Source of the DNA: Verrucomicrobiota bacterium | Lineage (GTDB): Bacteria > Verrucomicrobiota > Verrucomicrobiia > Limisphaerales > AAA164-E04 | Assembly: GCA_047947115.1 (NCBI GenBank) | Contig: CP170459.1 | Location: 4,480,001-4,544,000 of the forward strand | Reading direction: 5' to 3' | DNA length: 64,000 nt | In this document: positions 43,974 through 60,440 of the stretch, in pieces | How positions within the stretch are numbered: position 1 is the first letter of the stretch | How the letters are laid out: each line of letters opens with the position of its first letter | Program-made: the position numbers and the translations under genes | Notes under the pieces: model-generated | What the model saw: only the letters and a program-made list of their open reading frames with translations | Told to the model about the DNA's origin: nothing | Databases searched by the model: none

Positions 43974-45450
43974 ACAAATTTCCTTTCTTGTTTTTGGCGA
44001 TTTTGGGTTTTGGGACAGCATTCAGGCGTCTCAGTCCAAGGGCATAGGCCTGAATCTGGCGAGGCGTCTGGCGTGGACAGGATTGTTGATAGGCCTCAAG
44101 TGCGGCGGAGCGGACTGCTTTCCCCCAACCCGATTCAGGGAGTTCCTCGTCAATAGTGAATTCACGAGCAACATCAAACAGTTCAGGAAGACTTTGCTCG
44201 GTGATGGTCCAGAAGTGTTGACGAGCTTTGTTATAAGCCGGAGAAAGCACTTCGAGTTGCGAGGCGTAGACTTTCACTGCTTGAATCAGGATAGATTCTG
44301 CGATCTCGGCGTATTTAACGCCTCGTTCGTAAGCAAGGCGCCCGGGCGTGTCGAGCATTGAACGCGGTATGCGATATTGAGCTTCCACGACATCTTCGAT
44401 CTTAGCCTTGTCCGTAACCAATGCCCCCACCCAAAGGCCCACTTCCGAGAAAGTTACTTCGTGGGATAGCGCCAAAGGGCCTGATATCGAATCGCCGGAA
44501 GACCGTCGACGAATTGTTACGGGAGCCAATTGGCGCCAGAGACTTCGGTCTGTCGAGGCAGGCATCAATCCGTAATCATCCTTCTTTTGGATAATCGTGG
44601 CAGTTGCTTCGCGATAGGTAGGAAAGATCGGATAATCCAGTCCGTTGGCTAGAAGCATCTTGTTTCCGTCCTCGGCCAAACAGACGAAGCGAGTGAGAGG
44701 GACCAAGCGCCCCAGATATGAGGAAGAGGCGTTTTCTAAGGCTGATTGATCAGCGGCGTCAATAGGGGGACAATCCCATATAGGCTTTCCAAATCTCGAA
44801 TAAACATCTCCAACTATCGCCTTGGTCAACAAATTCAAATGGATGGTATCTAATAGGGAATCGCCAAGCAACAACGCATGGAGCATGCTGGAAGATACAC
44901 ATGGAGCGTGGTTACTAGATCCTTTTCCGAGAGTATCTTTACCATGCCACTTCGCAACGCCAATACGCCCCCCGGGAGAAAAACACTGAAATGTCAGTAG
45001 ATTGAGAGCAGCGCGAGAAGCGGAGACCGATCTGTTATCCCCGGCAGAATTGTCGAAAAGAGTCGAGTTGTTACCTGTAGCGAGTGAGAGATCAAGCTTG
45101 GTGGATGAGTTCCCCTCATCTGTATCCTTGCTAGGCTTGAGATTTGAAACCTGCAGAAACCTTTCACTGTCACCGAACAAGTCGAATTTAGTTTTCCTAT
45201 TCTCCAAATACTCCTTCACTAGAGGTTGGATACTTTGCAAGCAATCCTCCCAATCCTCTTCATCCTGAGGACCATCTAATGCGGCCTGTGATATACAAAT
45301 TAACAGACGCATGAGAGCAATGCGTTCGTGTGGTTTCACGGCAAGGTCCCGGAGCTCGTGGGCTTGCGCGAACATCTCTTGCAAGCTGTAAAGCATGCTC
45401 TTGCCGTTATGGCAAACGGCTGGGATCCACGGATCACTGGTCAAATTCAT
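43954..45450 (-). CDS. cas8e: Type I-E Cas8e (CasA/Cse1)
   Basis: MNL..DPWIP, FDLF....FLQ, GNN.TLFD, LL.FQCFS.GG and RSLWR motifs. Confidence 0.93.
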   Translation of the reverse strand: MNLTSDPWIPAVCHNGKSMLYSLQEMFAQAHELRDLAVKPHERIALMRLLICISQAALDGPQDEEDWEDCLQSIQPLVKEYLENRKTKFDLFGDSERFLQVSNLKPSKDTDEGNSSTKLDLSLATGNNSTLFDNSAGDNRSVSASRAALNLLTFQCFSPGGRIGVAKWHGKDTLGKGSSNHAPCVSSSMLHALLLGDSLLDTIHLNLLTKAIVGDVYSRFGKPIWDCPPIDAADQSALENASSSYLGRLVPLTRFVCLAEDGNKMLLANGLDYPIFPTYREATATIIQKKDDYGLMPASTDRSLWRQLAPVTIRRRSSGDSISGPLALSHEVTFSEVGLWVGALVTDKAKIEDVVEAQYRIPRSMLDTPGRLAYERGVKYAEIAESILIQAVKVYASQLEVLSPAYNKARQHFWTITEQSLPELFDVAREFTIDEELPESGWGKAVRSAALEAYQQSCPRQTPRQIQAYALGLRRLNAVPKPKIAKNKKGNLYEQNQA

Positions 45451-48067
45451 CGTCGTCTTCACTCCAGGGTTCAGGTTCAGTATGTGGGCGGGTCTTGGCG
45501 GAATGATCGACGAAAACGCCGAAGTCCGGGTGATAGGATGTTGAAGATTTTTCCTCGCCAAAAATGAGATAACCATCGTCAGCCATGCATGCGACTACAG
45601 CATCGTGAGAAACGTGCTCCGTCAACCAGTGTGGACATTGCGCGTCTGACGGCACCAACCACTTGGGTACACGTACGAACCATCTGTGAAGGAACCGGGC
45701 AGCATGGATGCTCCACTCGAAATCGGAAATATTCAAGGTGGATTGTTTGGTGTCCAATGCAGTGAGTCTCCACTGATTAGACGGAAGTTGTTCGATGGAT
45801 TGAAGGATTACCAGAGGGACAGTAGGAGGCCCTTTACGTCGAGTTAGCACTCCATCGTCGTCCGCATTGAGCATGGGAAGGCCTAAAACACGCATGGCAG
45901 ATTCCGCATTGAGGGCGAGCTTTCTTTTCTCAGTCTCCATCATTTCGTACAGTTCAGACCAGCCACATGGTTCATCGTCGGCAGGAAGGGCGTAAGTAGC
46001 TTCAAGGACTTCACGGATTTGAACAGGCACAATAATCTTCGAACGACCTTGCCAGACCTGAGCGCTACGAAGGAGCACATAGGGGGCGTAAACTCTGCCG
46101 CTTCGACCGAGGGCGATTCTCAGCATCTTTGAATTCGCGTCCTCGTCAAGTTGGGGGAGCCGAATCCAAAATTCTGGCTCTTCGGCAGTGCGCTGCCCAA
46201 GCGGACGTTCGTGACGCCAAAGCCGCCCCATACGCTGAACTATCATGTCAGTGGGAGCCAGATCGGACACAATAAAATCGAGATCAATGTCGACACTTTG
46301 TTCGACAACCTGCGTAGCGATCAAGATGGACCCCGGGCCGTCTGATGAACGGTTTTTACCCAGGTGATTCAACCAGTCCTTTTCCAACTCCTGTCTTCGT
46401 TCGAAAGGAAAGCGAGCATGCAGCAAACCTAATTTCACATCCCCCTCTCGCATCTCATCTTTCAGTGCACGAAAGCCCTGTTGTGCTTCTATGACCGTGT
46501 TGCGGATCCAAAGGACATGCTGACCAGCTTCGGCACGGTCGATGAGTTCTTCAAGGACAGTTTCCGTTGAAATTTCCCCAACATGAATTTTAATGGGATA
46601 TGACTTGATCCATTCCGGCTCATGATATTTCACCCCCCCACCCGGAACCGCCTCGGTGACGAGAGGATAAGCGTCAGGGCTTCCAGATTCTGAGCAGCCA
46701 GCGGATGCCAATAGCTCTCGCCTCCTTTGGGTGGTGAGTGTGGCACTGAGAATGATGACAGAGCAGCCGAGATGCAAAAGTTCACGAACCAAGGCACACA
46801 CTAGTGTGCCAGTATAAACGTCGTAGGAATGAATCTCGTCGAGAATCACCACTTTACCTGCAAGACCGAACCTGCGGACAAAGAAATGCTTGACTGTCAC
46901 CATGCTTTGTAAAGCTTGATCGATCGTTCCAACACCGTAAGGCGCAAGAAGTGCTTGCTTACCAGACGCAAACCATGATCGAGCTTCACGAAGTTCATCT
47001 GCAGGATCTTCACCGTCTTTAGGGTTACTAAAACTATAATGAGCTTGTCTAAGCTTTATAACTGGAGTTACTTCTAGCCAAGCATGACTATGAGCAAGGC
47101 GAAGGTGTGCGGTGTCCTCGATTACGTTTTCAAGAAAATCTGCAACACGCAAGTGAATGCGATTACTGGTTACCTGAGTAGGTAAGGCAAAGTAAAATCC
47201 ATGGTGGTGGCCGGCATTAATCCACTTTTGAGCAACATGAAGGGCGGCCTCGGTTTTACCGCACCCCATCGGGGCTTCAACAATGACGATGCCTGGCTTG
47301 GTGACAGCAACACATTGCTGAACCGAATTCGGCTCGAATCCGGGCGAAATCTTTGATGAAAATGCTTTATCGAATGCAGTAAGCCGCAATTTTCCTCCAG
47401 GCCAGCCTATGACTGCCAGCGCTCTCTTTGCCTGCTTTCGAGCCTGCGACAAAGACACACCACGTTCAGATGAAAAAAATTCTTCATTTGAACCAATCCA
47501 GTCAGCAACCGTAATCAATCCGGCCAACAACCAAAGATCGGAATGGTATCGACTGAATCGTTTACTAGGTGCTTCGGCTGGAAGCGGCCCGAATATCTGA
47601 ATCAATTCTGCAGCAACAGCTTGACGGTGAACCGACGCCCAATCGCCGGCAGCTTCGAATTCGAACCTGGCGTTTCGTCCCTTAGGCCGGCCATGGTGCG
47701 CTCCGACGGCAGCGGCCCAAAGATGGGCCTTGGAAGGCTTGAGCAGAGTTTGAAGAAAAACCTGGCTGACAAGCGCGTGATCCGAAACTGATGCGGTGGC
47801 CATTCTCCTGATGGACTCGTCGAGCTCGACTGGAAACCGCCACTTAGCACATTTCATTTGAAACCCAAGCGTGATTTTCCCAATGTCATGCAGTGCCGCC
47901 AAAATTGAAGCCCCCTCAGAAAATTCCCTTTTCACGTTCTCTGGTAATAAGGAAAGGAAAGCTTCCGCCACGAACCCAACATTTACGCAATGGTCAAAGA
48001 CAGACAAACCCGGTTCTCCAGAGGGAGTTGTCTTTGCCCAGAACTGATTATAATTAAGCTGGTTCAT
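45434..48067 (-). CDS. cas3: Cas3 HD nuclease-helicase
   Basis: WAKT, HDIGK, HHG, ADWIGS, APMGCGKTEAA, DEIH, SAT and QRMGRLWRH motifs, all apparently intact. Confidence 0.97.
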   Translation of the reverse strand: MNQLNYNQFWAKTTPSGEPGLSVFDHCVNVGFVAEAFLSLLPENVKREFSEGASILAALHDIGKITLGFQMKCAKWRFPVELDESIRRMATASVSDHALVSQVFLQTLLKPSKAHLWAAAVGAHHGRPKGRNARFEFEAAGDWASVHRQAVAAELIQIFGPLPAEAPSKRFSRYHSDLWLLAGLITVADWIGSNEEFFSSERGVSLSQARKQAKRALAVIGWPGGKLRLTAFDKAFSSKISPGFEPNSVQQCVAVTKPGIVIVEAPMGCGKTEAALHVAQKWINAGHHHGFYFALPTQVTSNRIHLRVADFLENVIEDTAHLRLAHSHAWLEVTPVIKLRQAHYSFSNPKDGEDPADELREARSWFASGKQALLAPYGVGTIDQALQSMVTVKHFFVRRFGLAGKVVILDEIHSYDVYTGTLVCALVRELLHLGCSVIILSATLTTQRRRELLASAGCSESGSPDAYPLVTEAVPGGGVKYHEPEWIKSYPIKIHVGEISTETVLEELIDRAEAGQHVLWIRNTVIEAQQGFRALKDEMREGDVKLGLLHARFPFERRQELEKDWLNHLGKNRSSDGPGSILIATQVVEQSVDIDLDFIVSDLAPTDMIVQRMGRLWRHERPLGQRTAEEPEFWIRLPQLDEDANSKMLRIALGRSGRVYAPYVLLRSAQVWQGRSKIIVPVQIREVLEATYALPADDEPCGWSELYEMMETEKRKLALNAESAMRVLGLPMLNADDDGVLTRRKGPPTVPLVILQSIEQLPSNQWRLTALDTKQSTLNISDFEWSIHAARFLHRWFVRVPKWLVPSDAQCPHWLTEHVSHDAVVACMADDGYLIFGEEKSSTSYHPDFGVFVDHSAKTRPHTEPEPWSEDDDEFDQ

Positions 48068-48288
48068 TAGCTCGAAAGGTCGTTAGATTTTCTTTTTCCA
48101 ACAAGATTTTTTTGTTAATTAATTCGGGCTAAGTTTTAAACAAACATAGAGCTCGTTTGTCGTCAACACAAACAAACAGACCGATCAGATATTCACGATC
48201 ATTTCTAGGCTTCATACAAGTCTATCTCGGAAATCGAGCTTGCACCAAAAATCTTTAAACAGATTCAAAAAAAAAATTCTTCGTCCGG

Positions 48289-49413
48289 TTAGCGGATCCA
48301 ACAAACCTCCCCAAATCCGCAAGGAGATCTTACCATAGACCCAGATTCCAACACCCAAAGTAACTCCTGCTCAGGAGCGCGATCGGGTATTGAGCCATAA
48401 CCATCTGTAAAATACACCAGCAAGGCATCATCATGGTCGGGATGTTCCATCTCCTTGAAAAATGGTCTGAAATCAGTTCCTCCGCCCCCTTTGGGCAGCA
48501 AGGCCTCTTGATCCTCCAGATCATACGGGCCATGCAGTTCGGTGTCAGCGTAGTAAATTAACAGGTCCAAGTGGGGGTATGAAGCAACAATGCCACGTAG
48601 TTCTGCCATGAATTTTCCCAGGTCTTGGGGGCTTATCGACCCACTGGTGTCGATGCAAACCCGGACCTTGAGGCTCTCTCCCTGCAGGTCCTCGAGGTAG
48701 AGACCGGAACCGATGAAACGACGATCGAATCCATCAAAATCGACTTGGCTACTGGCAAGAAACCGCCAGAGGAGGGTGCGCCAGTCGAGCGACGGTTCCA
48801 GAGCTTCATCCACCGCCCGAAGAAGACCTGCGGGCAGTTGTCCAAAAGCGTCTTCCCCTGTGAGCATGCGGGCCCGTGAAAAAGCCGATGCCCAGAATGT
48901 TCTTTGTTCGCGTTCTTCTGAGGCGTCATCGATTCCTGCACCGTCATGGTTTGAACGGGTCCGAACCAGGTCGTGCCATTCAGCACTGAGGGTGTAGGGC
49001 TTGCTGTATGTGCTGAGTCGATCATAGGCTTCCTCAACTTCAAGATCTTTGAGCCTGAAATCTTCTATAGGGCTGAAGGGCAACTCCAGATCCTTTATCT
49101 CACGGACCATTCCGTTGATGACAATGTCAGCGGCGATATTCCATTGTTCGGGATCCCTTTGTCCGCACCTTGAGGAGTGGCGGAGGGCAGCGTGAAGTAT
49201 CTCATGCACCATGACGCCATCGAGTTCTCGGGCATTGATGGAACAGACAAATTGAGGATTGAACCTGATCCATTTACCATTGGTGCACGCCGTGGGTATT
49301 GCCTCATCCAAATGGTGATCGATGAACAGTGCCAGAGCTCCAAAGAATGGTTGACGGGCTCGTAGTCTCACGAGAGATCCTTCCAGCCGCAGGGTTGCTT
49401 CTTCAGTGCTCAT
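48289..49413 (-). CDS. DUF2201-type putative metallopeptidase with C-terminal vWA-like domain
   Basis: TACTNG, HEILH (HExxH), WNIAAD.VIN, IDTSGS (MIDAS), GGGTDF and FTDGYG motifs. Confidence 0.9.
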   Translation of the reverse strand: MSTEEATLRLEGSLVRLRARQPFFGALALFIDHHLDEAIPTACTNGKWIRFNPQFVCSINARELDGVMVHEILHAALRHSSRCGQRDPEQWNIAADIVINGMVREIKDLELPFSPIEDFRLKDLEVEEAYDRLSTYSKPYTLSAEWHDLVRTRSNHDGAGIDDASEEREQRTFWASAFSRARMLTGEDAFGQLPAGLLRAVDEALEPSLDWRTLLWRFLASSQVDFDGFDRRFIGSGLYLEDLQGESLKVRVCIDTSGSISPQDLGKFMAELRGIVASYPHLDLLIYYADTELHGPYDLEDQEALLPKGGGGTDFRPFFKEMEHPDHDDALLVYFTDGYGSIPDRAPEQELLWVLESGSMVRSPCGFGEVCWIR

Positions 49414-50405
49414 GCGGCTTGCAACAGGTGTTTGAGAAACGGTTTAAGTTTGGGTTCATTGGCCAGTATGGTGGCCAGTTCTCCAAGTTGCCCGTTGCTT
49501 TTTGCTCTCGAATAAACGACGTGGATAAAAAGTTGACACCACTCAGGTTTTGCCTGACTGACCAGCCACGAGAAAGCAAAACGGATGGCCTCTGACTCAG
49601 TCGCGCGATGCCCTAGTCCAAGAGTCAGCGCATACCGCTGTGAAGGCTCATTCGGAAAGTCGATTTTTGCGCCACAACCGTTCAGGATGTGCTCAAGATT
49701 AGGCAAGTCCTGATAGACCTTTAGAAAGGATTCAAACTCTAGAGCGGTTCCATCACCCACGGCTGCCGTTATTGGGCTGCCTATAGTGTGCAACTCTGAA
49801 GCCATTTGCCATGTGCGCGGGGACGGCCATGCGGAGTTTTTAGTATCCAACTGGTGCAGGAGTTCAGGTCGATAATTGATGAATGCAAGAACTTGTTCAT
49901 GAATGCCATTGTCAATTGCCCAATGTCTGAAACTTGTCAGATCGGGCTCCACTTCAAAGTGCAGGAATCGGTTGGCCAAAGGAGCTGGCATCTGGTGAAC
50001 CGAAGCACGATCTTCTCTTCGATTGCCAGCAGCCCAGATCACCCAGCCATCGGGCACGCTGTAGCTGCCGACTTTACGATCCAAAATCAATTGCTGTGCG
50101 ATGCCCTGAATGGCCGGAGGAGCCAAGTTGATTTCATCCAGAAATAATATCCCTTTACCCTCTTGTGGCAGGAATTCCGGTGGGAGCCAACGCGCCGTCT
50201 CACCGGAAGCCACAGGCAATCCCCGCAGATCAGTAGGCGCTAGTTGGCTGAGACGCAGGTCGATGATCTCGAGATCTTGTTGCCTTGCTAAATCTGCGAC
50301 AATGGAAGATTTACCAATGCCAGGAGGTCCCCAGATCATCACCGAACGATGGATCTTGTGTTCAAGTAGTTTAGTAAGTTGTTGATGAAGTTGGGTGGGT
50401 GTCAT
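49410..50405 (-). CDS. MoxR-like AAA+ ATPase partnered with DUF2201
   Basis: WGPPGIGKS, DLRGLP, LFLDE, AAGNR, PLANRF and PSPRTW motifs. ATGA-coupled to both neighbours. Confidence 0.9.
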   Translation of the reverse strand: MTPTQLHQQLTKLLEHKIHRSVMIWGPPGIGKSSIVADLARQQDLEIIDLRLSQLAPTDLRGLPVASGETARWLPPEFLPQEGKGILFLDEINLAPPAIQGIAQQLILDRKVGSYSVPDGWVIWAAGNRREDRASVHQMPAPLANRFLHFEVEPDLTSFRHWAIDNGIHEQVLAFINYRPELLHQLDTKNSAWPSPRTWQMASELHTIGSPITAAVGDGTALEFESFLKVYQDLPNLEHILNGCGAKIDFPNEPSQRYALTLGLGHRATESEAIRFAFSWLVSQAKPEWCQLFIHVVYSRAKSNGQLGELATILANEPKLKPFLKHLLQAA

Positions 50406-52555
50406 GCCTTGGTTGGGTAAGGGTTTTCGGTCTCAAACTGAAGATTATCTCTAACAGCCGCACGAACAAGCGGGTGGCGATCCCGGGAAAGCCCATCACG
50501 CAGGTAGGGGTGTAGGCTCGGCTCCAAAGCGGTAACCGCCCTGACAAACCAGTGTTTGTCCCGGGTCAGGATCCGGTGTCGGATTCGGTCCTTGCGGTCC
50601 CAAAGGGCTAGGCAGGATCTATACCAGGGGTTGCGGCTGTAGAGCAGATCATCGGCTCCCTTGTTTGCCTGCTCCAGAAAATGGTCGCGTGCCGGGCATT
50701 CTGCTGACTGTAGGAAGCCGCTGATGGTGGCCTTCTGGATCAGAGGCTCGGGGTCCTTCATCAATCGGTTTAAGGCCTGGGGGCTAGTCCAAGGATCATT
50801 AGCAAGCAACCACCGCAAGGCGGGGTGTTCATCTTTCAACAATGCAGACTCGAACTTTTTGAAAAACGTAGGATACCGTTTGAGTTCGCTGGCCCGCTCC
50901 CAAAGCACCAATTTGGCAGCTTGCTCACGAATGGCAACCTCCTTAACCGCAAAAAGCGGCAACGAGTCTTGAAAACATTGCCAGGTCCGTTTGCTGAGGA
51001 CCTCCAGTGCGACCTCAGGCACTGGGTCCTTGACCAGCTGGCTGAGGTCCTCCCCGCTGATCCTCCAGTCCCGACAGATCTTCTTACGAATCTCAGGATC
51101 AGGATCACGGGTTAATTCGGAAAGGGTGTGGGCATAATGCTCTCCGCGATAGCGTGTGTGACTATGTGCCAGATAGTAATCGGCCACGGCATGACGGACC
51201 GAGCTGTCAGGGTCTTTGACAAGCTGAGGCCTCAGTGAGGAAGCCGGTCGCCCTGGCAGCCTGGCAGCAGCGGCCCTGAGCCTGGGGTCTTCGTGTCGGG
51301 CTGCCTTACCAACCAGGAAGGAATGGGCTGATGGATGAACCAGTGGGATCAGCTCATCAGCGGTTTTGGTCTTGATCAGCTCTTTGGCAACCTCCCTGCT
51401 AGGCTTTGGATTATCGAAAAGCGCCTGACGGATGGTGCCACCAAGGCCCCATAAGCGCTTCTCGGTTGTCCTGGAAAGGCCTTCCTTTCGCGCCAAAGCC
51501 TCGAACCAAGAGGACCGGAACCCTTTACCTATCAATTCCTCCACAGTCTCCTCAACAGCCTGATCGTCGATAGGCCATTCTAGTTTTATCTGCTCCCAAG
51601 CGGCTTGGCTGACGGACGGCTGGGAGTGGCGCGTCATCCGCCATAAAAAACGTGAATCAGTTCGCCAGTTTTGGGCCACGATTAAGGCGACTTGTGGCGC
51701 CTCTTCAAATGCCTGGTCGATCATTCGATACAAAAGGTCACGGGAACGTCCTTCCAGGCCACTGCGTCGCCAATCACGACACAGGGCAAAACTCACAAAA
51801 AACTCGGGCTTTTCGTGCTCAAGGGCATATTCAAACATGTCATCCTGTGCATAATCCTGAGCTAAATTGAGCGCTCGAATGCATAAATGTGGGTTGTGTT
51901 GAAGTTTGCGAGCAATTGCCAATACATCACCAACGACCTCGTTGGGTTTCTTGATGAAACGTTCTGCATACGGATGATCGGAGTCAGGATTTTGCCAAAG
52001 CGAACCGAGAGTGATCCGATGGTTACTGAGGTTTTTTATTACCCCCTTACCGACATCGAAGGAGGAATCCTTCAGGAATGGGACCAGGTGCGATGCTGGA
52101 AGCTTCTCTGCCGCTTTTTTGCGTACATTTTTGGACGGGTCACTAGCCAGTGCCGCCACATAATCTTCAACCAAGGCCGGCTTTCTGCTCAATAATCTGC
52201 CTAGTAAGCTCCATTTACCCATGCTTTGCCACTCAAGAAAATCCTCACAATCTTCGAGCCGCTGCGCTTCGGTGATGTAACTTTCAAGCACTTTCGTATC
52301 TTTTCTGTGGATCAGGTAAGTGTACAAACTCAGACGACAAACGTCCGGTAAAAGTCCATGTAAGGATTTTCCCTCGTTCAAAGACTTCAATGCCAAGATA
52401 GGATTATCCAACATGGCCTGGGGTTGGTCTATCCAAAGATTGATCAGCTCTTCCCATGGAGTTGATGGATTCAGAGCACGTCCCCCGGCTGCTTCGCAGG
52501 TATACGAGGACGTTTTTGGTTCTGACGCTCGGTTGTTTTGACCAACATCATTCAT
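50402..52555 (-). CDS. HEAT/LRV-like repeat protein
   Basis: Many L..DP...VR..A repeats (LASDPSKNVR, LVKDPDSSVR, LTRDPDPEIR, LSRDRHPLVR) and an N-terminal NPSTP...L motif. Confidence 0.75.
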   Translation of the reverse strand: MNDVGQNNRASEPKTSSYTCEAAGGRALNPSTPWEELINLWIDQPQAMLDNPILALKSLNEGKSLHGLLPDVCRLSLYTYLIHRKDTKVLESYITEAQRLEDCEDFLEWQSMGKWSLLGRLLSRKPALVEDYVAALASDPSKNVRKKAAEKLPASHLVPFLKDSSFDVGKGVIKNLSNHRITLGSLWQNPDSDHPYAERFIKKPNEVVGDVLAIARKLQHNPHLCIRALNLAQDYAQDDMFEYALEHEKPEFFVSFALCRDWRRSGLEGRSRDLLYRMIDQAFEEAPQVALIVAQNWRTDSRFLWRMTRHSQPSVSQAAWEQIKLEWPIDDQAVEETVEELIGKGFRSSWFEALARKEGLSRTTEKRLWGLGGTIRQALFDNPKPSREVAKELIKTKTADELIPLVHPSAHSFLVGKAARHEDPRLRAAAARLPGRPASSLRPQLVKDPDSSVRHAVADYYLAHSHTRYRGEHYAHTLSELTRDPDPEIRKKICRDWRISGEDLSQLVKDPVPEVALEVLSKRTWQCFQDSLPLFAVKEVAIREQAAKLVLWERASELKRYPTFFKKFESALLKDEHPALRWLLANDPWTSPQALNRLMKDPEPLIQKATISGFLQSAECPARDHFLEQANKGADDLLYSRNPWYRSCLALWDRKDRIRHRILTRDKHWFVRAVTALEPSLHPYLRDGLSRDRHPLVRAAVRDNLQFETENPYPTKA

Positions 52556-52579
52556 ACGATGGTAATTTAGTGGATGGGG

Positions 52580-52598
52580 TAGGACAAAAACTGTCCTA
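52580..52598. promoter_or_regulatory. Perfect operator-like palindrome TAGGACA-N5-TGTCCTA upstream of the HEAT-MoxR-vWA genes
   Basis: 7-bp inverted repeat about 25 bp upstream of the ATG at 52555. Confidence 0.55.
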
Positions 52599-52606
52599 GG
52601 CTTGTA

Positions 52607-52774
52607 TTAAATGGATTTATTGTCTTCATCTAAAGTCTCTGGGGGTTTGTTGTTGTTGTCGTCTTCGCTGGTTTTTTCATGATAGGCTTTCCAAACCTCA
52701 TCAGGAATTAGGGTCAGTGCGCTTCCTGCTTCCAGGTAAAGCTCACGCAAAGAGTCGTCTTTAGAATCAGGCAT
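52607..52774 (-). CDS. Small acidic hypothetical protein
   Basis: ATG at 52774 after GAAGGGG, overlapping the upstream ORF end. Confidence 0.45.
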   Translation of the reverse strand: MPDSKDDSLRELYLEAGSALTLIPDEVWKAYHEKTSEDDNNNKPPETLDEDNKSI

Positions 52775-53009
52775 TTTGGACCCCTTCTTTTGAATTCGAA
52801 ACAACATTTTTCCAACCGTCACGAAGCAATGAATTCCGTTTCTGGTGGGCCTTGGTGCGGGATTTTGTGTGGAGATTCACTCGGAACCGTTCCTGTCGGA
52901 ATCCATCCTTAATCGCCCAGAAGTGGCACCACCAGGTGCCGTGATTTTGGAATAGGTGATGGTCGGGATTATTTTTCCGAACCCGCACCGAAAGACTCCA
53001 GCTACTCAT
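52767..53009 (-). CDS. Small basic hypothetical protein (NPxHHL...GTWW motif)
   Basis: GAAGGAGG RBS, overlap with neighbours, C-terminal R.R.NL.T.....A...R pattern. Confidence 0.7.
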   Translation of the reverse strand: MSSWSLSVRVRKNNPDHHLFQNHGTWWCHFWAIKDGFRQERFRVNLHTKSRTKAHQKRNSLLRDGWKNVVSNSKEGVQNA

Positions 53010-53190
53010 TGTTCGCCTCCTTCGGTTGATGATTGCATGTCTGGCCTGTCTCGACTACCCGAGGAATCCTGCGGATGGGGATCACGATGAGTTGCTCACC
53101 GTCTTTCAAGAAGGAGCTTTTGCCCTCTATGTTGATTTGATCAGGCTGACGCGATGACGCGTTACCTGTCGTTTGTTTTTTGTCTGTCAT
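53002..53190 (-). CDS. Small hypothetical protein, first ORF after the riboswitch
   Basis: 62-aa ORF starting ~40 bp after the riboswitch terminator and overlapping the next gene. Confidence 0.45.
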   Translation of the reverse strand: MTDKKQTTGNASSRQPDQINIEGKSSFLKDGEQLIVIPIRRIPRVVETGQTCNHQPKEANNE

Positions 53191-53232
53191 GGCTCAATGT
53201 TTTTTCTGGTTTCATTGGCCACCAGGATCTGG

Positions 53233-53272
53233 AAATACAAAAGACCCGCACTCCAATCAGGAACGCGGGTCT
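53233..53272 (-). terminator. Riboswitch expression-platform intrinsic terminator
   Basis: AGACCCGCG-TTCC-TGATT-GGAG-TGCGGGTCT followed by TTTGTATTT on the minus strand. Confidence 0.8.
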
Positions 53273-53278
53273 AAAATC

Positions 53279-53400
53279 CGGAGGAGACTTACTTTCCACT
53301 CAATTGAGTGGCTCATCCGATACTTTTCAGTATCGAAGGCACCTTGGCTCTCCCAGCCAGGTTGCCAGGTCTTGCAACTTGCAGGACCGTTCCTGATGAC
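53279..53400 (-). ncRNA. SAM-I/IV-type riboswitch aptamer
   Basis: Minus strand: P1 TCATC/GATGA; P2 GGTC...GACC; core GGCAACC...GGTGCC; P3b TGGCT-GGGAG-AGCCA; P4 CGATAC/GTATCG; P5 CCACTC/GAGTGG; 3' tail CTCCT complementary to the L3 loop (PK-2). Confidence 0.85.
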
Positions 53401-53406
53401 GACTTC

Positions 53407-53435
53407 AACCTACATCATGCAGATGTGTTCGACAA
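53407..53435 (-). promoter_or_regulatory. Sigma70-like promoter for the riboswitch transcript
   Basis: -35 TTGTCG, 17-bp spacer, -10 TAGGTT; the predicted start falls at the first base of P1. Confidence 0.6.
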
Positions 53436-53456
53436 TACTGTTTTGTGTCATAAAAC

Positions 53457-53738
53457 TTAGTCGGACGAGTCTGGTTCGCCAATCAAACACCAGATCCCTT
53501 CTTCCCGTATGGTTTTAAGAACTTCGTCCAGAGCCTCCTGATCGGTATCAAAGGGATCATCCCAGACGGTCGAATTATCGTATTCGTCTTCAACCTCAAG
53601 TATCCATTTGCCTTCTCCGTCTCCGTAAATTTTAACGGAAACAGAGTCGTCGCCAATGCTGATGACTTGGCACAATGGAGAATACACGAGCTCAAAATCG
53701 TCGTCGCCTCCCTCGATTTCAAAAGTTGGTCTGATCAT
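53457..53738 (-). CDS. Small acidic hypothetical protein
   Basis: Protein-like composition (W.LEVEDE..NSTVWDD.F.TD.EAL). Start uncertain. Confidence 0.65.
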   Translation of the reverse strand: MIRPTFEIEGGDDDFELVYSPLCQVISIGDDSVSVKIYGDGEGKWILEVEDEYDNSTVWDDPFDTDQEALDEVLKTIREEGIWCLIGEPDSSD

Positions 53739-53842
53739 TTTCAATGAATCTAACCAACGGGGCGTTCCAGTCAACTCCGCTCAGAGTTGATCGGATGGCT
53801 GTCGCTGGGTGTATTCCGGCGTCTACTTTTTACCTGTGCGTT

Positions 53843-53970
53843 TTACTGCAACTGGTTTCCTGCACTGCAGAACAGTAATAAACCTGCCAGTTACTGCAAC
53901 TGCAAACCCTAAAGGGTTTTTGCAGTATGCAGTTAACCTGGCTTTAGCTTTTTCACTGCAACGCTGCAGT
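53843..53970. repeat. Putative replication origin: clustered (A)CTGCA iterons converging on an AACCC-TAAA-GGGTT palindrome
   Basis: About nine CTGCA/TGCAG units in 130 bp at the 3' end of the helicase gene. Confidence 0.65.
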
Positions 53971-55005
53971 AGTCCAGATACGAGTCTTAGGTTCCTTGGT
54001 CACTGAACCATCATGCTCAAGCTGCTTGAGCAAATTGTGAAAAGTACGTTCGCTCATTCCTGTCTCTTCTCTGGCAAGCTTGAGCCAGTCCTTTGTTTTG
54101 CAACCTGAAACCGGCAACAACTCAAGCAATTGCTCTGATGAATACTTCTTGCTTGCTCCTGCCTTGGTCTTCAGATCAGAAGGATCGAAGTCAACTCTTG
54201 TACAAACAGGATGACTCCAGCTTATCACGAAGCTTTCAACACTCGGATGATTACGCAGGACCAAGTCCACAGTGAAACAATCCTCTTCCTTGTGCTTGGT
54301 CATTGTCACCAGTGCATCCGGATCTCGAGCAAATACACCACTGCCTGAGAATCGATCCATTTGTTCCTTGCCGGCTTGGTTGCCCTTGGAAAAATGGTGA
54401 GCACTGATGACGGCGGCACCGGTCTGGTTGGCTATGTCATCAATTATGTTCAAAAACTCCGCTATTTCCCCGGCGGCGTTTTCATTCCTACCGGCCATGA
54501 TCTTGTAAAGCGGATCAAGGATAATGGCCCCATACTTCATCGGAGCTGCCCGGCTGCATATGGCTTCTCTGATGGTCGTAATATCGGGATTGTGACCGCG
54601 CAAGCCCCAGTAGTCGATGTTCTCCATTCCACCATCGGGATATTTTGCGACAACACCTTTGATCGATTGATCAATATTGTCCATGCGCTCCATGAAAAAC
54701 GAAGTGAGCAGTTCCATATTGACATACAAAACGCGGCACTTGTTAGTTTTAAAATCCAACCAGCTTCCGCCTGAAGCCAGTGCATGTGCAAGTTGCATCA
54801 GGATCCAAGTCTTGTTGGATTTGGATCCACCGCCAATGATCATTTTGCAACCGGCGTGTAACACCCCATCAATCAATTCCGCGGGCTTCTCGCGATCCTG
54901 CGGATTCAATTGACTGAGGGGTGTTATTTCCGGCAGATCATTGCCTTGCGCCAAGGCAAGATCCAGTGGATCCAGAATTAATTGTTCGGCATCCATCGTT
55001 CGCAT
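53953..55005 (-). CDS. RepA-like replicative helicase (AAA_25/SF4-like) with C-terminal HTH-like region
   Basis: GGSKSNKT Walker A, VLYVNME, IILDPL, HHFSKG and RFSGSG.F.RDPD motifs. Confidence 0.85.
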   Translation of the reverse strand: MRTMDAEQLILDPLDLALAQGNDLPEITPLSQLNPQDREKPAELIDGVLHAGCKMIIGGGSKSNKTWILMQLAHALASGGSWLDFKTNKCRVLYVNMELLTSFFMERMDNIDQSIKGVVAKYPDGGMENIDYWGLRGHNPDITTIREAICSRAAPMKYGAIILDPLYKIMAGRNENAAGEIAEFLNIIDDIANQTGAAVISAHHFSKGNQAGKEQMDRFSGSGVFARDPDALVTMTKHKEEDCFTVDLVLRNHPSVESFVISWSHPVCTRVDFDPSDLKTKAGASKKYSSEQLLELLPVSGCKTKDWLKLAREETGMSERTFHNLLKQLEHDGSVTKEPKTRIWTTAALQ

Positions 55006-55997
55006 AGGTCTCCATGTTGGCTCCAGTAATCATAAAGGTCGTTCACCCCTTTAAATGGCGACAATTCGTATACCTCCACTGAAGAGCACCCTGCATCAAG
55101 TAACTGTTTTTTCCAGCGGGATGCCGCTCGCCTTCCAGCTTCGTCATCATGTCCGAAGATCCTAATCACTTTGCCCTTGAAAAAAGGAAGCACGGCCTCA
55201 TGTATGAGTGAAGAGCTGCCAAGCATGCCCACGGGTGCACAATTAGGTTCTGGCTGTTCGGTCTGGATGATGTGATGTGCAATCAGGAAATCCGGAATTC
55301 CCTCAACCAAGGCTATGTTCCTGAACTTTGATGCCTCCACAATACCAACGGGCCAGCTTTTCCGACTACCGGGCTCGGCCTTGCTTTTAATTCCTGCTGG
55401 AAATGGCTTGTTGTCCAGCCGCCGTGCCTCAATGACGTTCCCTGTTTTGTCGCATACGTAGTAGCATTCGTTCTTGCACTTAAGAACGCCGCGCTCCGAA
55501 GCCCAGAGCAGTCCCTGCAGACCGTAAGGCCTCTCATGAGCCATTTGCTGCAGAATCTGCCTAGAGGGCTTCAGAAGGCCGCGACCTTGCTCGTATGCCT
55601 CTGCATCCAGAAACATTTTGGGATCCAAGTTAACCGGTTGATCCTTGGTCCTGCGCAAAGGGCGGATCCGCTTTGGTGGGGCAACCTTAGCCAGGGTTCT
55701 GTATATGTCCAACACCTTGGCAAAATCTTTGTGCCGATCGAAACCGTGAACAGTGGCAATGAATTGAAGTTCATCTCCAACAAGTCCTGTTCCGTGGTCT
55801 TTGAACAACCAATTGGTCTCAACTTGATAAATCCCAAAACTTGGATTCTTATCGTCCCTGAAGGGTGAAGAACATGATTTTTTGGCATAATCGCCGAAAT
55901 CCATTGCTTCCATCAGATCTGGGAGTGGAAGCGCTTGTTTGAGTTGTTTAATTTGACTCTGCACCTTGGCAGGAGTTTGAACTTTTAATTGTTTCAT
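54978..55997 (-). CDS. Primase-like protein (degenerate CHC2-type N-terminus plus TOPRIM domain)
   Basis: SPFRDDKNPSF...FKDHGTG..GD, LVEG.PD, GHDDEAG and VNDLYD motifs. ATG at 55997 is ATGA-coupled to the upstream gene. Confidence 0.8.
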   Translation of the reverse strand: MKQLKVQTPAKVQSQIKQLKQALPLPDLMEAMDFGDYAKKSCSSPFRDDKNPSFGIYQVETNWLFKDHGTGLVGDELQFIATVHGFDRHKDFAKVLDIYRTLAKVAPPKRIRPLRRTKDQPVNLDPKMFLDAEAYEQGRGLLKPSRQILQQMAHERPYGLQGLLWASERGVLKCKNECYYVCDKTGNVIEARRLDNKPFPAGIKSKAEPGSRKSWPVGIVEASKFRNIALVEGIPDFLIAHHIIQTEQPEPNCAPVGMLGSSSLIHEAVLPFFKGKVIRIFGHDDEAGRRAASRWKKQLLDAGCSSVEVYELSPFKGVNDLYDYWSQHGDLCERWMPNN

Positions 55998-56404
55998 AAA
56001 TTTGAGTTGGGAGAGTACACACCCTCCCCAATTGATAAGTTTTCTGTTAATGGTTTGATTTCCACTACCTTGGCCATGGTTTGACCTTCGGCCTCGAAAT
56101 GCGCTACTTTCAGTTGGCATTTCTTTCCCTTGAGCTTCATTAGATCGAACTCGTTGTGAAGTTCCTCTGGACCTACCCATGCAGATAGATCCTTTAGCAG
56201 ATTGCTTTTGGGATGCAGGGTTGCGTTATAGGATTTCCTGATCTGAAGCGTCTCTGATGAGTCTTCAGGGACGATCAACCATGTGAAACGGACGAGGTGC
56301 TTGTTGCCATATTCAGTAGGCACAAAGCCTCTGTCCACGATCTCGGAGCAAATTGCCCGATGCCATCCCTCTTGGGGCAGTTGTCTAAGTAATTTTAACT
56401 TCAT
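55994..56404 (-). CDS. Phage-type SSB/replication-associated protein
   Basis: G.H.A.C..IVD.G...T.YG, Y..TLH.KSNL.KDL..W.G and FDL..L.GK.CQL.V.H pattern. Sits in the replication operon. Confidence 0.6.
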   Translation of the reverse strand: MKLKLLRQLPQEGWHRAICSEIVDRGFVPTEYGNKHLVRFTWLIVPEDSSETLQIRKSYNATLHPKSNLLKDLSAWVGPEELHNEFDLMKLKGKKCQLKVAHFEAEGQTMAKVVEIKPLTENLSIGEGVYSPNSNL

Positions 56405-56506
56405 GATTTTATGGGTGTTCGTGTGCCTAAATGCACAGGAAATTGGTTTGTGACGGAAAATCTCAAGGCACAGATATCCATCCAGACACCCCGAAAAGGG
56501 GGTGCC

Positions 56507-56824
56507 CTACTTGCTAATCTGTTGTGTTGGATTTTTTGTTGGGGGGTGGGGGGTGTTCCTCCTGACGGCTTTGATTTCGAGCAAATTCAAGGCTTGCTTG
56601 ACACTATCTGGGTCGAAGCGAACGCACCTTTTGCCGAGGCGGGTCACCGGAATCTTTTTGGCATCTACCAACTTTTCGAGTTGGCGAATTGAGATTTGAA
56701 GCTGGGCGGCTAGCTGCCGCTTGTTGAGATAGGAATTACCATACCAGGTTGAATTGACAAAGTCGCTGCAATTTGCGCTATTGTTTCCCAATTGTGTGTC
56801 TCGTGCAGGAGTGTTCGTATCCAT
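56507..56824 (-). CDS. Excisionase/AlpA-like HTH DNA-binding protein
   Basis: YLNKRQLAAQLQISIRQLEKLVDAKKIPVTRLGKRCVRFD. Confidence 0.8.
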   Translation of the reverse strand: MDTNTPARDTQLGNNSANCSDFVNSTWYGNSYLNKRQLAAQLQISIRQLEKLVDAKKIPVTRLGKRCVRFDPDSVKQALNLLEIKAVRRNTPHPPTKNPTQQISK

Positions 56825-56855
56825 GTGGACAACCTGTCCGACGTTTGAGGAAATG

Positions 56856-57518
56856 TCATCTGGACAATTTTGGATCCAAGTTTGTCCAACTCGCATCTAG
56901 TATAAATTGAAAACCTTTACGGCGAAACCCTCTTATTATTGGCCCTCTAGTTACGTGGTTGTATCGAATTAGCCCCAGTCTCTGAACTGCTTTCCGGTAG
57001 TTTTGCTCATCACACGTATGTCCGCTTATTTTTGAAAGGTGATAGGCTCCATCATCGTCTGTCATCATCCATAAAAACCCATTCACCCAAAACTGTAGAA
57101 TTCCAAACTCGATTTTGAACGTTTTTTTACTAATGCGTCTGGTGTATCTTCGGTGAGCAGTATGGATTTTTTGAAAAAACTCAGAATCCCCATTGAGTGC
57201 CTTCTCTAGGATATGATAAGCGAAGAACTTCAATGCAGCGTCAAGCTGGCCGAGTGAAATTAAACCAAAAAACGCTTCATCTTTTTTCGTGTCACTCTTT
57301 GTTATATCCTTTTGGCTCTTTGAGAGCCCAAAAGCTTTCCGTTGATATGCATGGACCTTTTCTTTCCAATTTTTGTGAACTTTGTCAAAGCCTTCGATTT
57401 TCGTTGTTTTCCTAAAAAAATCTTCTAGCCCGTTATCCAACTGCCATTTTTTACCTAGCTGTTGTCCAACACCTGCCAGTAACTCATCCCACTCGTCTAG
57501 TTGGTATGATTTTTCCAT
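56856..57518 (-). CDS. Hypothetical protein coupled to the integrase (possible regulator)
   Basis: TAATG stop/start overlap with the integrase at 57516-57520. No recognisable motif. Confidence 0.65.
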   Translation of the reverse strand: MEKSYQLDEWDELLAGVGQQLGKKWQLDNGLEDFFRKTTKIEGFDKVHKNWKEKVHAYQRKAFGLSKSQKDITKSDTKKDEAFFGLISLGQLDAALKFFAYHILEKALNGDSEFFQKIHTAHRRYTRRISKKTFKIEFGILQFWVNGFLWMMTDDDGAYHLSKISGHTCDEQNYRKAVQRLGLIRYNHVTRGPIIRGFRRKGFQFILDASWTNLDPKLSR

Positions 57519-58711
57519 TAACTTCCTTTTAAGTGACTCAGTTCTCTTCGTAGGTCTAGGACCGAGTTTTGTGGATCTGGTAAACATTCCTTTAATTGAG
57601 GAAAGGCAACTTCTGATCGGATACTCCAGTAGGCTTCGGATTTATCCTTAGTTACCAGTTCCCGGTAATGCTGGTAAAGCATCGCCGTATCAGAGTGCCC
57701 CAGTTCCATGGCGGTTCGTTTTGGGTCATTGAACATCGCATAGTGGTATGAAGCAAAGGAATGGCGGAAGTCGTTCTTCCTTGCCCGTCCGATCCCAAGT
57801 TCTTGCCACGCTGCATTTAATAGTCGTCTCAAGTTTGGAGGCTTCACTTTCCCACTCCGATTGCCTTGGGCAAATAGCCATGATTGGAGGTTCGGTTGGA
57901 TCTCAACCAAGCGTCTTCTTGAGGTTTTGGCATTGGCTGCTTTGATTTCAATGTAGCCGGATTCCAGGTCAACCTCATCCCAGTTTAGCTTATCCAGTTC
58001 GGCGATCCTTAGGCCAGCGAATGCTGCGATAGCCAGGTAGGAATGGATCTTGGGATCCGCAACTGACAACAACTTTCTTAGTTGCTCTGGCGTCAGTATC
58101 TTGATGGGATCTGGTTTGGCTTTGACTTTCTCGATTCTGGAGACTGGGTTCTCAGCAACAAAGCCGTGCTTCAAGGCATGGGTGAAAAGTCCGTTCAGGA
58201 CTGTCCTGAAGTTGTTCATGCTCTGTGCGCTCAGTCCAAGGCTATGAATCCAATGGTCGATCTCCGAAGCTTTGATGGTTGCAGCAATTTTCTTTTGGAA
58301 AGCCTCATTAAATCGGCCTAATCTGTAGCTCAAATCTTTGAGGTATCGTTCACTGTTTTGTTTTCGAGATTTGGTGCCCAGATAATCTGCAATCAGATCG
58401 GAAACAGTGCAGCTGTTCTTGGAGCTTTCCAGGTGGGATAGGTAAAAGTTGACGGCTTCAGAAAGTGTGGCTTTGAAGGGCTTGAGGCGATCATCACATT
58501 GGACTGCTTCAAGACGTAACTGGTCGCTGATTGCGAAGGCTTTGTTGCCGAGGTTTTCAAGTTCGATTAAGATTTGATCCCTGCGAGTATTCGCCTCTTT
58601 TTTGGTTTTGAAGAATTCGCGGGTGCGCTTGCCATCCTTTGGGTAGCCGACGACCCATTTTGAAGTAGGAGAATGCTTGTAAGGTTTGACAGAAACTTTC
58701 GGCGAGCCCAT
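57518..58711 (-). CDS. int: Tyrosine recombinase/integrase
   Basis: N-terminal arm domain (W.V.Y..DGKR.R.FF.TK.EA), AGLR..E, AKT, ND.RHSFASY, LGHS and HY catalytic region. Confidence 0.95.
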   Translation of the reverse strand: MGSPKVSVKPYKHSPTSKWVVGYPKDGKRTREFFKTKKEANTRRDQILIELENLGNKAFAISDQLRLEAVQCDDRLKPFKATLSEAVNFYLSHLESSKNSCTVSDLIADYLGTKSRKQNSERYLKDLSYRLGRFNEAFQKKIAATIKASEIDHWIHSLGLSAQSMNNFRTVLNGLFTHALKHGFVAENPVSRIEKVKAKPDPIKILTPEQLRKLLSVADPKIHSYLAIAAFAGLRIAELDKLNWDEVDLESGYIEIKAANAKTSRRRLVEIQPNLQSWLFAQGNRSGKVKPPNLRRLLNAAWQELGIGRARKNDFRHSFASYHYAMFNDPKRTAMELGHSDTAMLYQHYRELVTKDKSEAYWSIRSEVAFPQLKECLPDPQNSVLDLRRELSHLKGS

Positions 58712-58759: not shown

Positions 58760-58803
58760 TTTCGGCACTAAGCTTGAGCATTGTGTGTAAGTCGTTGAAG
58801 GAG

Positions 58804-58852
58804 TGGAGCCAGCTGTCGGGGTCGAACCGACGACCGACGGTTTTCAAAACCG
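58804..58852 (-). pseudogene. Right att junction: 3' half of a tRNA-Thr (variable loop, T-arm, acceptor strand, CCA) ending in core CGGTTTTCAAAACCG
   Basis: Reverse complement ...AAACCGTCGGTCGTCGGTTCGACCCCGACAGCTGGCTCCA, with T-arm GTCGG-TTCGACC-CCGAC. No 5' acceptor strand is present. Confidence 0.9.
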
Positions 58853-60440
58853 ATGCCGCGAATTGCTCGATCTTTTGTTTTCTGACATCAAGCGTCATGG
58901 AGGCCAGGCCGCACAATTGGTTCAAGAACTTTCACAGATTGTGAACCCGGACCAATGGCCACTGACCATGGTTGATGTGGATGAAACCATGTGGAGTTCC
59001 CATCCGAAAACAAGTGGTTCCCACCGTGGCCCCTGGTATCGACTGTCCGTCAATGAAACCAGACTTGCCAGCAGCTACCGCAGAAATATTCCGACCCCCG
59101 ATCATGAAGGATTTCAGCAACGTATCATCGAGTATATGTTCAACACGCGGCCAGACGGAAGTTTTCGAGTCAACGATGCGATCGAGGATGGTTATGGTTA
59201 CGGATATCTATCTCAAGAAGCTTCGGCATCGGGCATTCCGAACCGTCCCGACATATCCTATGCAGGAGAACCCGGCTTTCCGGTTGACGGTTTGGCTTTT
59301 AACAGCAGCACCTTCGTCAACCCGAGAGATCCTAGCGGATTTGCCCGGATGGAATGGAGAATAGGAGAAGTGTCCAATCCGGAAACCGAAAACTACGTCC
59401 CCGGCACACCCTGGATTTATGAGATCGAACCTCTCTGGCACAGCGATCCCATGACAACTTTTTCAGAGACTATGGCCATCCCGCCGGACCAGCTCAAACC
59501 GGGACACACTTACCGCGCGAGAGTGCGACACGTCAACACAGAGGGGCATGCCAGTCATTGGTCACTACCATTGGAATTTGTCGCCTCGGCACCGGATTTG
59601 ACCTTGTTTCGGAACGGATTGGTCATCAGTGAAATCATGTATCACCCAGCTGGGGATTCCACGGCCGAATACATTGAACTTCACAATATCGGCGAAGCCA
59701 CTCTCTCCCTGAGTGGCTTCCGTTTCACGAAGGGAATCGATTTCGATTTCCCCGATGACACTGAAATAGAGCCAGGAGGATACCTGTTGATCACAGGCGA
59801 CCGGCAAGCCTTTGAAAGAGTGTATGGGCCAAACCTACCCATAGTCGGGGAATGGGAACAAGGGGACCGGTTGAGCAACGCCGGAGAAAACATCAAGCTC
59901 TCCTACGGGGCAGGCATCCCCATCATCGACTTCACGTATGAAACAGAAGCCCCCTGGCCAACCGCTCCCGACGGAAAGGGTTCATCTCTGCAACTTGCCA
60001 ACCTCCGTTCTGGCTTGGATCACACCAATCCCGCGCAATGGAAAGCAAGCATTCAACCAGGAGGCACGCCGGGCAAAAGCAATGGTAACTCTCTTGAAGA
60101 TTGGCTGACGTCTTATGGGATTATCGAATCCAATCTCGAAGAAGATCCGGACAATGACGGTCTGCCTTCGTTACTGGAATATAGTCTGGGAAGCAACCCA
60201 AACGTTGCCGATGTTTCATCCATCATGACCATCACATACACCGAGGCAAATGTCACGCTAGCCACCCGAGTTGATCTCGGAGCCACCGATGTGGAGGTGT
60301 CTGCACAATTTTCCACCAACCTGAAAGCCTGGGAAACAATCAATAGCCCGGCCATCAATCCCACCAGTCCGACCGAACTGAAATGGACCGCCCCAACCCA
60401 CCCGAAGGGATTCTTCCGCCTTCAAGCCACTCGACGTTAA
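58838..60440 (+). pseudogene. C-terminal part of the interrupted CotH/lamin-tail protein
   Basis: GFQNRCRELLDLLF continues the N-terminal half in frame. Then FN3-like YRARVRH...SHWS, second LTD (LVISEIMYHP), DPDNDGL..LLEY.LGSNP and terminal FFRL. Confidence 0.88.

Follow-up and report, generated by a model that had tools for sequence, protein, structure and literature searches.

A SAM-I/IV-class riboswitch on an integrated element of a Verrucomicrobiota bacterium and the predicted SAM-shortage operon behind it

A riboswitch of the SAM-I/IV class, carried by an integrated element in the genome of a Verrucomicrobiota bacterium, probably turns on an operon (orfA-orfB-orfC-HEAT-MoxR-DUF2201) that responds to SAM shortage, and its control likely does not reach the cas genes that follow. 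The window analysed here is a stretch of 64,000 nt, of which an earlier account had been drawn from the letters alone (hereafter the sequence-only reading).

SAM-I-family switches are usually taken as markers of methionine metabolism. Here, such a switch stands before an operon that is non-metabolic and recurs on mobile DNA and, across Verrucomicrobiota, before small proteins of one uncharacterised family. This provides a ligand-defined handle on standalone proteins resembling arm-type DNA-binding domains, on the phage-widespread MoxR-DUF2201 pair and on island-borne MetK variants. If phage SAM lyases were the trigger, the RNA would directly sense, through a metabolite, a known means of disarming defence. 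The RNA class is already known and its pairing with orfB, MoxR and MetK apparently undescribed: no description of a SAM-I/IV RNA with orfB and MoxR/MetK cassettes was found in the literature searched, which lay mostly outside subscription journals, and Additional File 1 of PMC2864571 may list downstream genes.

The aptamer

The leader comprises the following features.

53441..53454, minus strand: conserved box TTTATGACAC(AAAA), lying some 50 nt upstream of P1
53407..53435, minus strand: predicted sigma-70-type promoter, TTGTCG-17-TAGGTT, from its sequence and conserved position
53280..53404, minus strand: SAM-I/IV riboswitch aptamer (P1-P5, L3/3'-tail pseudoknot), matching Rfam RF01725
53233..53272, minus strand: intrinsic terminator, stem 53272-53242 of 13 pairs
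53186..53227, minus strand: second hairpin over the orfA start codon, -12.6 kcal/mol

The aptamer covers model positions 1-99 of RF01725 with a cmscan score of 48.0 bits against a gathering cut-off of 41.1, and is the sole gathering-level Rfam RNA in the window. The SAM-I/IV identity proposed in the sequence-only reading is thus borne out by the covariance model, and every element listed there is present on the minus strand at the position given: P1 (TCATC, 53399-53395, pairing with GATGA), the core GGCAACC/GGTGCC, P4 and P5, and a pseudoknot of 5-6 bp between L3 (GGGAGA, 53354-53349) and the tail (TCTCCT, 53287-53282). Distant copies have other complementary L3/tail pairs, of 7-9 bp in 9 of 14, the tail changing along with L3. 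P2 is free of the SAM-I/SAM-IV internal loop and helices P3, P4 and P5 are present. The positions that we take to be the SAM-pocket nucleotides U7, G11, A45, U57, G58 and U88 in SAM-I numbering are all found in the cmscan alignment; these labels come from the Weinberg supplement (PMC2864571).

Covariation supports the fold: among 17 orfB-linked aptamers, 90.7% of cells are paired and 43 are changed on both sides, far exceeding column shuffles and slid controls, in a count that covers P2/P3 only, P1, P4 and P5 being left out because they are poorly aligned, and in which kin among the 17 are not independent. The 171-nt leader folds with z = -6.4, none of 200 shuffles being as stable. The aptamer is a member of the SAM-I/IV class, described by Weinberg et al. 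2010 (PMC2864571), and as such a predicted SAM sensor.

Terminator, antiterminator and promoter

In S-box/SAM-I termination switches, a ligand-stabilised P1 lets the terminator form and an antiterminator prevails without ligand. The terminator at 53272-53242 has the strongest and longest stem among 17 terminator-like sites between 44 and 56 kb (12.5 expected by chance). On the minus strand, ATCAGGAACG (53397-53388) is complementary over 10 bp to CGTTCCTGAT (53265-53256) inside the terminator; in 8 of 3000 dinucleotide shuffles, the 5' segment had a perfect complement of at least 10 bp within the 95 nt downstream. The P1/terminator and antiterminator pairings are mutually exclusive. A transcript folded only to the end of the complementary segment takes the antiterminator form with P1 open (-62.9 kcal/mol), and the full leader favours the terminator (-73.9 kcal/mol against -64.3 with the antiterminator forced). 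These energies would fit a switch whose state is set kinetically and which is on when SAM is absent.

The antiterminator complement measures 9-10 bp in all 19 close copies in which the script found the core (1 of 20 was missed). Of 14 distant copies, 9 have a complement of 8-10 bp in terminator stems unrelated in sequence to the present one; for the remaining 5 the script gave 3-6 bp, some with P1 mis-placed. The pairings behind the logic put forward in the sequence-only reading are therefore present and recurrent, and from them we infer that the switch is on at low SAM.

The 5' arm of the second hairpin is also complementary to the aptamer 5' strand, the duplex reaching -16.2 kcal/mol against -12.6 for the hairpin, and a second CCTG(A/G)TG copy recurs ahead of the start codon in close and distant copies. 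Judging from these foldings, the hairpin at the orfA start probably forms a second, translational layer of control.

The promoter elements lie where they had been placed, with a -35-like TTGTCG (53435-53430), a 17-nt spacer and a -10-like TAGGTT (53412-53407) on the minus strand. None of 11 aligned close copies departs from TTG or TA, although the site falls under the 9-of-12 threshold of the consensus scanner. A LexA-box reading of the promoter, made against what we take to be the LexA consensus, was rejected, the motif not being conserved in the aligned close copies.

The operon and its boundary

The genes behind the switch are as follows.

53002..53190, minus strand: orfA, 62 aa, no family; found in the majority of close marine copies but not in the sister element
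52767..53009, minus strand: orfB, 80 aa, the conserved target, a standalone protein predicted to bind DNA and resembling arm-type/DUF6538 domains
52607..52774, minus strand: orfC, 55 aa, no family, overlapping the orfB stop; this third small ORF most likely starts at 52774, to judge from a Shine-Dalgarno sequence and homologue starts
52575..52598, minus strand: hairpin ahead of HEAT that has no U run on the sense strand; relatives have a stronger form, and here it is partly eroded
50402..52555, minus strand: HEAT-repeat protein, 717 aa (Pfam HEAT/HEAT_2)
49410..50405, minus strand: MoxR-type AAA+ ATPase, 331 aa (Pfam AAA_5; phrog_1297, E 7.6e-84), with a 4-bp overlap with both neighbours
48289..49413, minus strand: DUF2201_N metallopeptidase-like plus vWA-like DUF2201 protein, 374 aa, predicted operon end
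48068..48288, minus strand: AT-rich gap of 221 bp that contains a T10 run and a hairpin and probably marks the end of the operon ahead of cas3
37271..48067, minus strand: type I-E cas operon and CRISPR array, inside the element, absent beside other copies

The only break in the run of overlapping or abutting genes from orfA through DUF2201 is a 51-bp gap before HEAT, which holds the conserved hairpin. The sequence-only reading saw no obvious terminator downstream of the switch. This holds as far as DUF2201, whereas the gap between DUF2201 and cas3 (35% GC) contains the T10 run and a hairpin of -10.8 kcal/mol, and we infer that the operon ends at DUF2201.

The proposed link between switch and HEAT-MoxR-DUF2201 recurs elsewhere. 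Locus L014 has the whole gene order through a truncated DUF2201, and a genome of the same genus (G558) has box, promoter, switch, an orfA-like gene, hairpin, HEAT, MoxR and DUF2201 followed by an unrelated gene, orfB not being found there. In another genome (G573), orfB-HEAT lies on one contig and HEAT-MoxR-DUF2201 on another, which would represent one split operon. Among the close loci, HEAT follows orfB/orfC in 10 of 38 and MoxR in 3 of 38.

Other relatives have other genes behind orfB. In at least 6 genomes (G281, G291, G264, G447, G620 and G401) this is a second type of MoxR accompanied by a gene weakly similar to DUF2201_N, and in at least 10 it is MetK or a MetK-like protein; of these 10, 8 have an RNA of at least 20 bits and two (G264, G601) one below 20 bits. 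MetK proper stands behind orfB in G338, G281, G291, G264, G601, G555 and G680. Divergent MetK-like proteins (L167:9594-10679, L172:2330-3502 and L185:4520-5668), with 26-28% identity to MetK and the core motifs kept, end the second MoxR cassette in G447, G620 and G401. One integrase-bearing island (L113, G281:C4) has two tandem switch-orfB units, the first followed by MetK and the second by MoxR-peptidase. All these partner counts are lower bounds, the Pfam scan having taken 102 of 239 neighbouring ORFs of the phylum loci and 30 of 86 of the order loci. The targets had been called non-metabolic: no methionine gene lies in the present operon, but related operons carry MetK, so the targets of the switch are not wholly non-metabolic.

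A conserved protein of 208 aa, OrfD (L014:8391-9017; also L052, L054, L066, L166, L168 and L178), often follows orfB/orfC and is not in the window copy. It has no Pfam, NCBIfam, PADLOC or Atlas match.

Distribution of the switch and of orfB

Across the phylum, orfB is the conserved target of the switch, a point missed by the sequence-only reading. A SAM-I/IV-type RNA (nhmmer, at least 20 bits) lies upstream of 36 of 62 orfB copies, including 22 of 48 outside the training set, and in 0 of 2341 control windows; the profile was built from 17 aptamers, and the 62 copies were chosen from the phylum search with most copies of family f8 omitted. This profile was used instead of a hand-written SAM descriptor, which missed known copies (7/62). 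In the order sample, the RNA precedes 18 of 25 orfB copies with full upstream sequence, with 4 more at contig ends. The switch also precedes orfB in 23 of 28 close loci with enough upstream DNA, from a redundant set of 38, many of them short (9 too short upstream, one 12-residue match dropped). At Rfam gathering level, no SAM RNA was found in the 29 distant loci first tried, and sub-threshold matches appeared at E-value level in 7 of 13. RF01725 occurs in 24 of 150 other phylum genomes, before orfB in 8, a metY-like gene in 9, metK in 2 and other genes in 5, metY-like and metK being names that we presume from the N-terminal sequences. Detectable RNA is absent at 26 of the 62 orfB copies, including all f8 loci examined, so that OrfB need not be SAM-related.

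Many switch-orfB copies look chromosomal and single-gene, which the sequence-only reading had likewise overlooked. This is the appearance of the unit in family f7 (presumably Opitutaceae), where a convergent Sel1-repeat gene is found in 10 loci. Such copies raise the question of whether the switch and orfB are an ordinary chromosomal SAM-regulated gene taken up by elements, the downstream genes being incidental. The variety of those genes and the existence of truncated or decayed copies (L008, L016) would agree with this. Against it, MetK and two distinct cassettes of MoxR and peptidase are found repeatedly behind orfB, in separate families; G558 keeps the switch and HEAT-MoxR-DUF2201 without orfB; and orfB is patchy in the order, with relatives in 27 of 301 genomes there and in 0 of 7 other genomes of the same family. 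Such an origin is distinctly unlikely, and the reading of the whole unit as a SAM-shortage operon is preferred.

In family f8 (presumably Akkermansiaceae), the orfB copies L024, L025, L037 and L042-L045, which follow what we take to be an rpmB-like gene, have a conserved leader about 200 nt upstream with a long imperfect stem and no SAM core. Two of these leaders scanned at E-value level gave no meaningful Rfam match, and the leader is a possible undescribed RNA motif. At L082, L083 and L091, SAM-I/IV RNAs precede another ORF of about 150 aa (no NCBIfam match for the one tested), which is a second non-metabolic target family of these RNAs.

OrfB and the upstream box

OrfB has relatives in 68 of the 401 genomes compared across the phylum. 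The family forms 642 clusters at 50% identity, and nearly all of the best 150 of these 642 are 56-172 aa long. The window's own OrfB has no Pfam match; DUF6538 (PF20172) is matched by 21 of 32 family members at E <=1, the best at 1.6e-5. The model of OrfB has three strands and a helix (pLDDT 86), and its language-model neighbours are integrase arm-binding families (0.93-0.94). Fold searches gave weaker signals. Foldseek against the PDB returned nothing at E 0.001 and a profile search of solved structures gave 0 matches. The best VIA-align score was Z 5.9, weak and to the unrelated DUF1488; other weak likenesses were to the AP2 domain (Z 4.3, rmsd 3.8, 60 aligned) and to lambda integrase (Z 3.6, rmsd 3.8, 49 aligned). 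Comparison with the N-terminus of the element's integrase reached only 19% probability. No orfB relative in viral contigs was found among 10 pattern matches. Weak as the fold searches are, the DUF6538 matches, the model and the language-model neighbours together make it likely that OrfB binds DNA.

The TTTATGACAC box upstream of the promoter hardly varies in any of 11 close copies, whose promoter spacers differ. The sequence-only reading had overlooked both this box and the second hairpin over the orfA start. TATGAC or its complement is found upstream of 7 of 8 orfB-linked SAM RNAs as against 1 of 17 others, and the box at 22 of 25 order-level orfB loci as against 158 of 2341 control windows. 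It is likely a protein-binding site, with OrfB as the candidate binder. The box accompanies orfB with RNA and, at 9 of 26 copies, without it, which suggests autoregulation; as a counterpoint, the box is retained in G558, a 93% complete genome in which no orfB was detected.

Elsewhere in the window's genome, the box shows no enrichment between genes that would mark a genome-wide regulator site (9 of 75 TATGACAC sites against a mean of 16% for shuffled words, in a count whose ORF mask hid both riboswitch copies). None of 5 genomes has it in front of chromosomal metK, and the genes behind 17 box matches from two genomes are mixed, with no met-gene pattern; OrfB as a trans-activator of met genes through the box was thus discarded. 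At L220, L221 and L223, upstream of chromosomal metK, a shared palindromic motif of the ATC-N-GATACGT type stands in place of a riboswitch, and resembles what we take to be a SahR site.

The mobile element

The location of the switch on a mobile element, as the sequence-only reading had it, is confirmed by integrase, replication genes, attachment ends and a sister copy. The integrated element is about 22.4 kb long, is bounded by tRNA-Thr pieces and interrupts a CotH/lamin-tail gene.

53457..58711, minus strand: element backbone with tyrosine integrase, 243-aa ORF, HTH_17, primase, AAA_25 helicase and 105-aa ORF (Pfam, PHROGs)
58799..58856, no strand assigned: integrase-side attachment end, 96% identity over 53 bp (58804-58856) to the 3' part of tRNA-Thr(TGT)
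36430..36458, no strand assigned: far attachment end, matching the tRNA-Thr anticodon arm, with the CotH/lamin-tail gene split
36688..37131, minus strand: terminal HTH gene, five copies in the genome with 83-100% identity, several near tRNA-linked islands
37271-39700: CRISPR array of 61-bp period, 38 spacers recovered, 36 distinct, with duplicates 37637/37881 and 38064/38125

Integrase, excisionase-like HTH, primase-helicase and attachment ends are present and virion genes absent, as in phage satellites of the PICI-like type; the terminal HTH gene, considered as a helper hijacking or packaging gene, has weak terminase-like HTH matches only. The insertion site in the CotH/lamin-tail gene resembles the anticodon arm, and an intact tRNA-Thr(TGT) is found at G000:C1:3759130-3759204. 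Outside the element, at 12674-14464, a carbamoyl-phosphate synthase large-chain-like ORF has 596 aa only (one ATP-grasp and an MGS domain), and L016 has a separate 500-aa half.

Positions 53218-56551 of the window are 97% identical, over about 3.3 kb, to the sister element at G000:C1:1684419-1687747, which has the same switch and orfB, and an IS instead of orfA, HEAT, MoxR, DUF2201 and cas. A third element, with a PolA replication module at tRNA-Ser, has the 5' half of the aptamer in the same position, ending inside P3 (G000:C1:3854290-3854352, L008:7290-7352), and the metagenomic L057 combines a PolA-type replication module with the whole switch. Island copies have DUF932, WYL, Dnd and integrase genes, among others, as neighbours. 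Each end of the element carries ATTGAC/GTCAAT repeats (36572-36603 and 58742-58758), which are similar to the promoter box and are candidate integrase arm sites.

Another role can be considered, in which low SAM would induce OrfB as a free arm-binding domain acting at integrase arm sites or element promoters and so favour excision or replication. The arm-type likeness of OrfB, the resemblance of the end repeats to the box and the integrases near orfB homologues in L110, L170, L176 and G281 are in its favour, as is the fact that in four elements (the window, L006/L048, L057 and the L008 remnant), which represent two types of replication, the switch immediately follows the replication module. 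Many copies, however, have housekeeping neighbours, among them the convergent Sel1-repeat gene of the f7 loci; a clear integrase match was found in 1 of 60 phylum loci (tblastn, about 5 kb), plus one weak; OrfB is poorly matched to the element's integrase N-terminus; and G558 has the operon without a detectable orfB. Control of the element's life cycle is therefore regarded as unlikely, and a SAM-shortage operon remains the preferred reading.

CRISPR-Cas neighbours and defence

According to the sequence-only reading, a phage SAM lyase would deplete SAM and so release an anti-phage response including HEAT-MoxR-vWA and the type I-E cas genes. All the genes are indeed co-oriented, island copies lie near Dnd, WYL, TIR/STAND or helicase genes, and MetK-bearing operons would fit a counter-measure. 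There is also a precedent in T3 SAMase, which cleaves SAM, inhibits MetK and disables restriction-modification and BREX (10.1101/2023.02.27.530186), so that a phage trigger is plausible.

The extension of control to cas is not supported by the comparisons: tblastn found cas3 beside no other copy in 38 close, 60 phylum and 37 order-level loci (many of them short contigs), the sister element lacks it, and the 221-bp gap separates it from DUF2201. The cas operon and array are likely cargo of this element copy and not part of the conserved unit. Spacers of the array have no match of at least 20 nt in the genome or the loci compared. The defence label fares no better: for 15 window proteins other than Cas3 and primase, PADLOC 2.0 gives only short, partial ATPase-motif matches at E 2.5e-4 or weaker, with 1 weak match among 17 related proteins, and NCBIfam has no system-level defence match. 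Moreover, the MoxR/DUF2201 pair is also common in phages (phrog_1297/phrog_1314 in PHROGs). An anti-phage response of this kind is distinctly unlikely.

A broader form of the idea deserves somewhat more credit, though it too is doubtful. Mobile islands across the phylum would then share a SAM-depletion alarm: their riboswitch would register the action of a phage SAM lyase or an inhibited MetK, and the reply would consist of a spare MetK that may be insensitive to the inhibitor, a remodelling machine built from MoxR and peptidase, and a standalone arm-type regulator. This would amount to an RNA-sensed counter-counter-defence.

Proposed mechanism

In the preferred reading, a SAM-shortage operon, bound SAM would hold P1 and the pseudoknot, the terminator would form and transcription would stop near 53235. 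Without SAM, the freed 5' strand would capture the 5' arm of the terminator and polymerase would read through; the same strand could then open the second hairpin over the orfA start. OrfB, as a DNA-binding regulator, may feed back at the TTATGACAC box upstream of the promoter. The MoxR-vWA/peptidase pair may form a chaperone or remodelling unit acting with the HEAT protein, by analogy with the systems of PMC7159879. Related operons carry MetK or a divergent MetK, and the likely purpose of those operons is thus to restore or protect SAM supply for element or host; the window copy is without MetK, and this role is extrapolated to it. Candidate drains on SAM are nutrition, element-borne methylases and a phage SAM lyase. 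Against this reading, the strong conserved hairpin before HEAT could limit read-through.

Comparison with known systems

The switch follows the logic of S-box/SAM-I switches, with a ligand-stabilised P1 leading to the terminator and an antiterminator without ligand, but its antiterminator uses the 5' P1/J1-2 strand and not the 3' P1 strand. The SAM-I switch that this genome also has lies ahead of a thrC-like gene. With the RF01725 class, as set out in PMC2864571, the RNA shares a covariance-model score above the cut-off, the CAACC/GGUG core, a P2 without the SAM-I/SAM-IV internal loop, P4, P5, the pseudoknot and marine occurrence; it differs in heading non-methionine genes on an integrated element and in having a conserved upstream box and a second start-codon hairpin. 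The typical RF01725 context is upstream of methionine or SAM genes, whereas no such gene is in this window's operon, with MetK in related ones.

OrfB resembles the arm-type domains of tyrosine integrases (DUF6538) in the three-stranded sheet and helix of its model and in the profile matches of some relatives; unlike them, it is standalone, its window copy has no Pfam match and no structural match is convincing. T3 SAMase anti-restriction and anti-BREX activity offers a real route to sudden SAM loss in infection, with no tie to these loci.

The MoxR-vWA ternary conflict systems, for which chaperone-gated activation has been proposed (Kaur et al. 2020, PMC7159879), likewise combine a MoxR ATPase (AAA_5), an adjoining vWA-like partner and a third large protein. 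Here, the third gene matches HEAT only and not VMAP, iSTAND, FtsH or beta-propeller, the partner is a DUF2201 protein with a metallopeptidase-like domain, and riboswitch control is not among the features described in the accessible part of that paper. The two protein families are also those of the AAA ATPase and vWA/DUF2201_N pair encoded by genes 33 and 36 of phage RG-2014 (PMC5735904); here, by contrast, the pair lies on a chromosomal element, behind a SAM switch and together with a HEAT protein.
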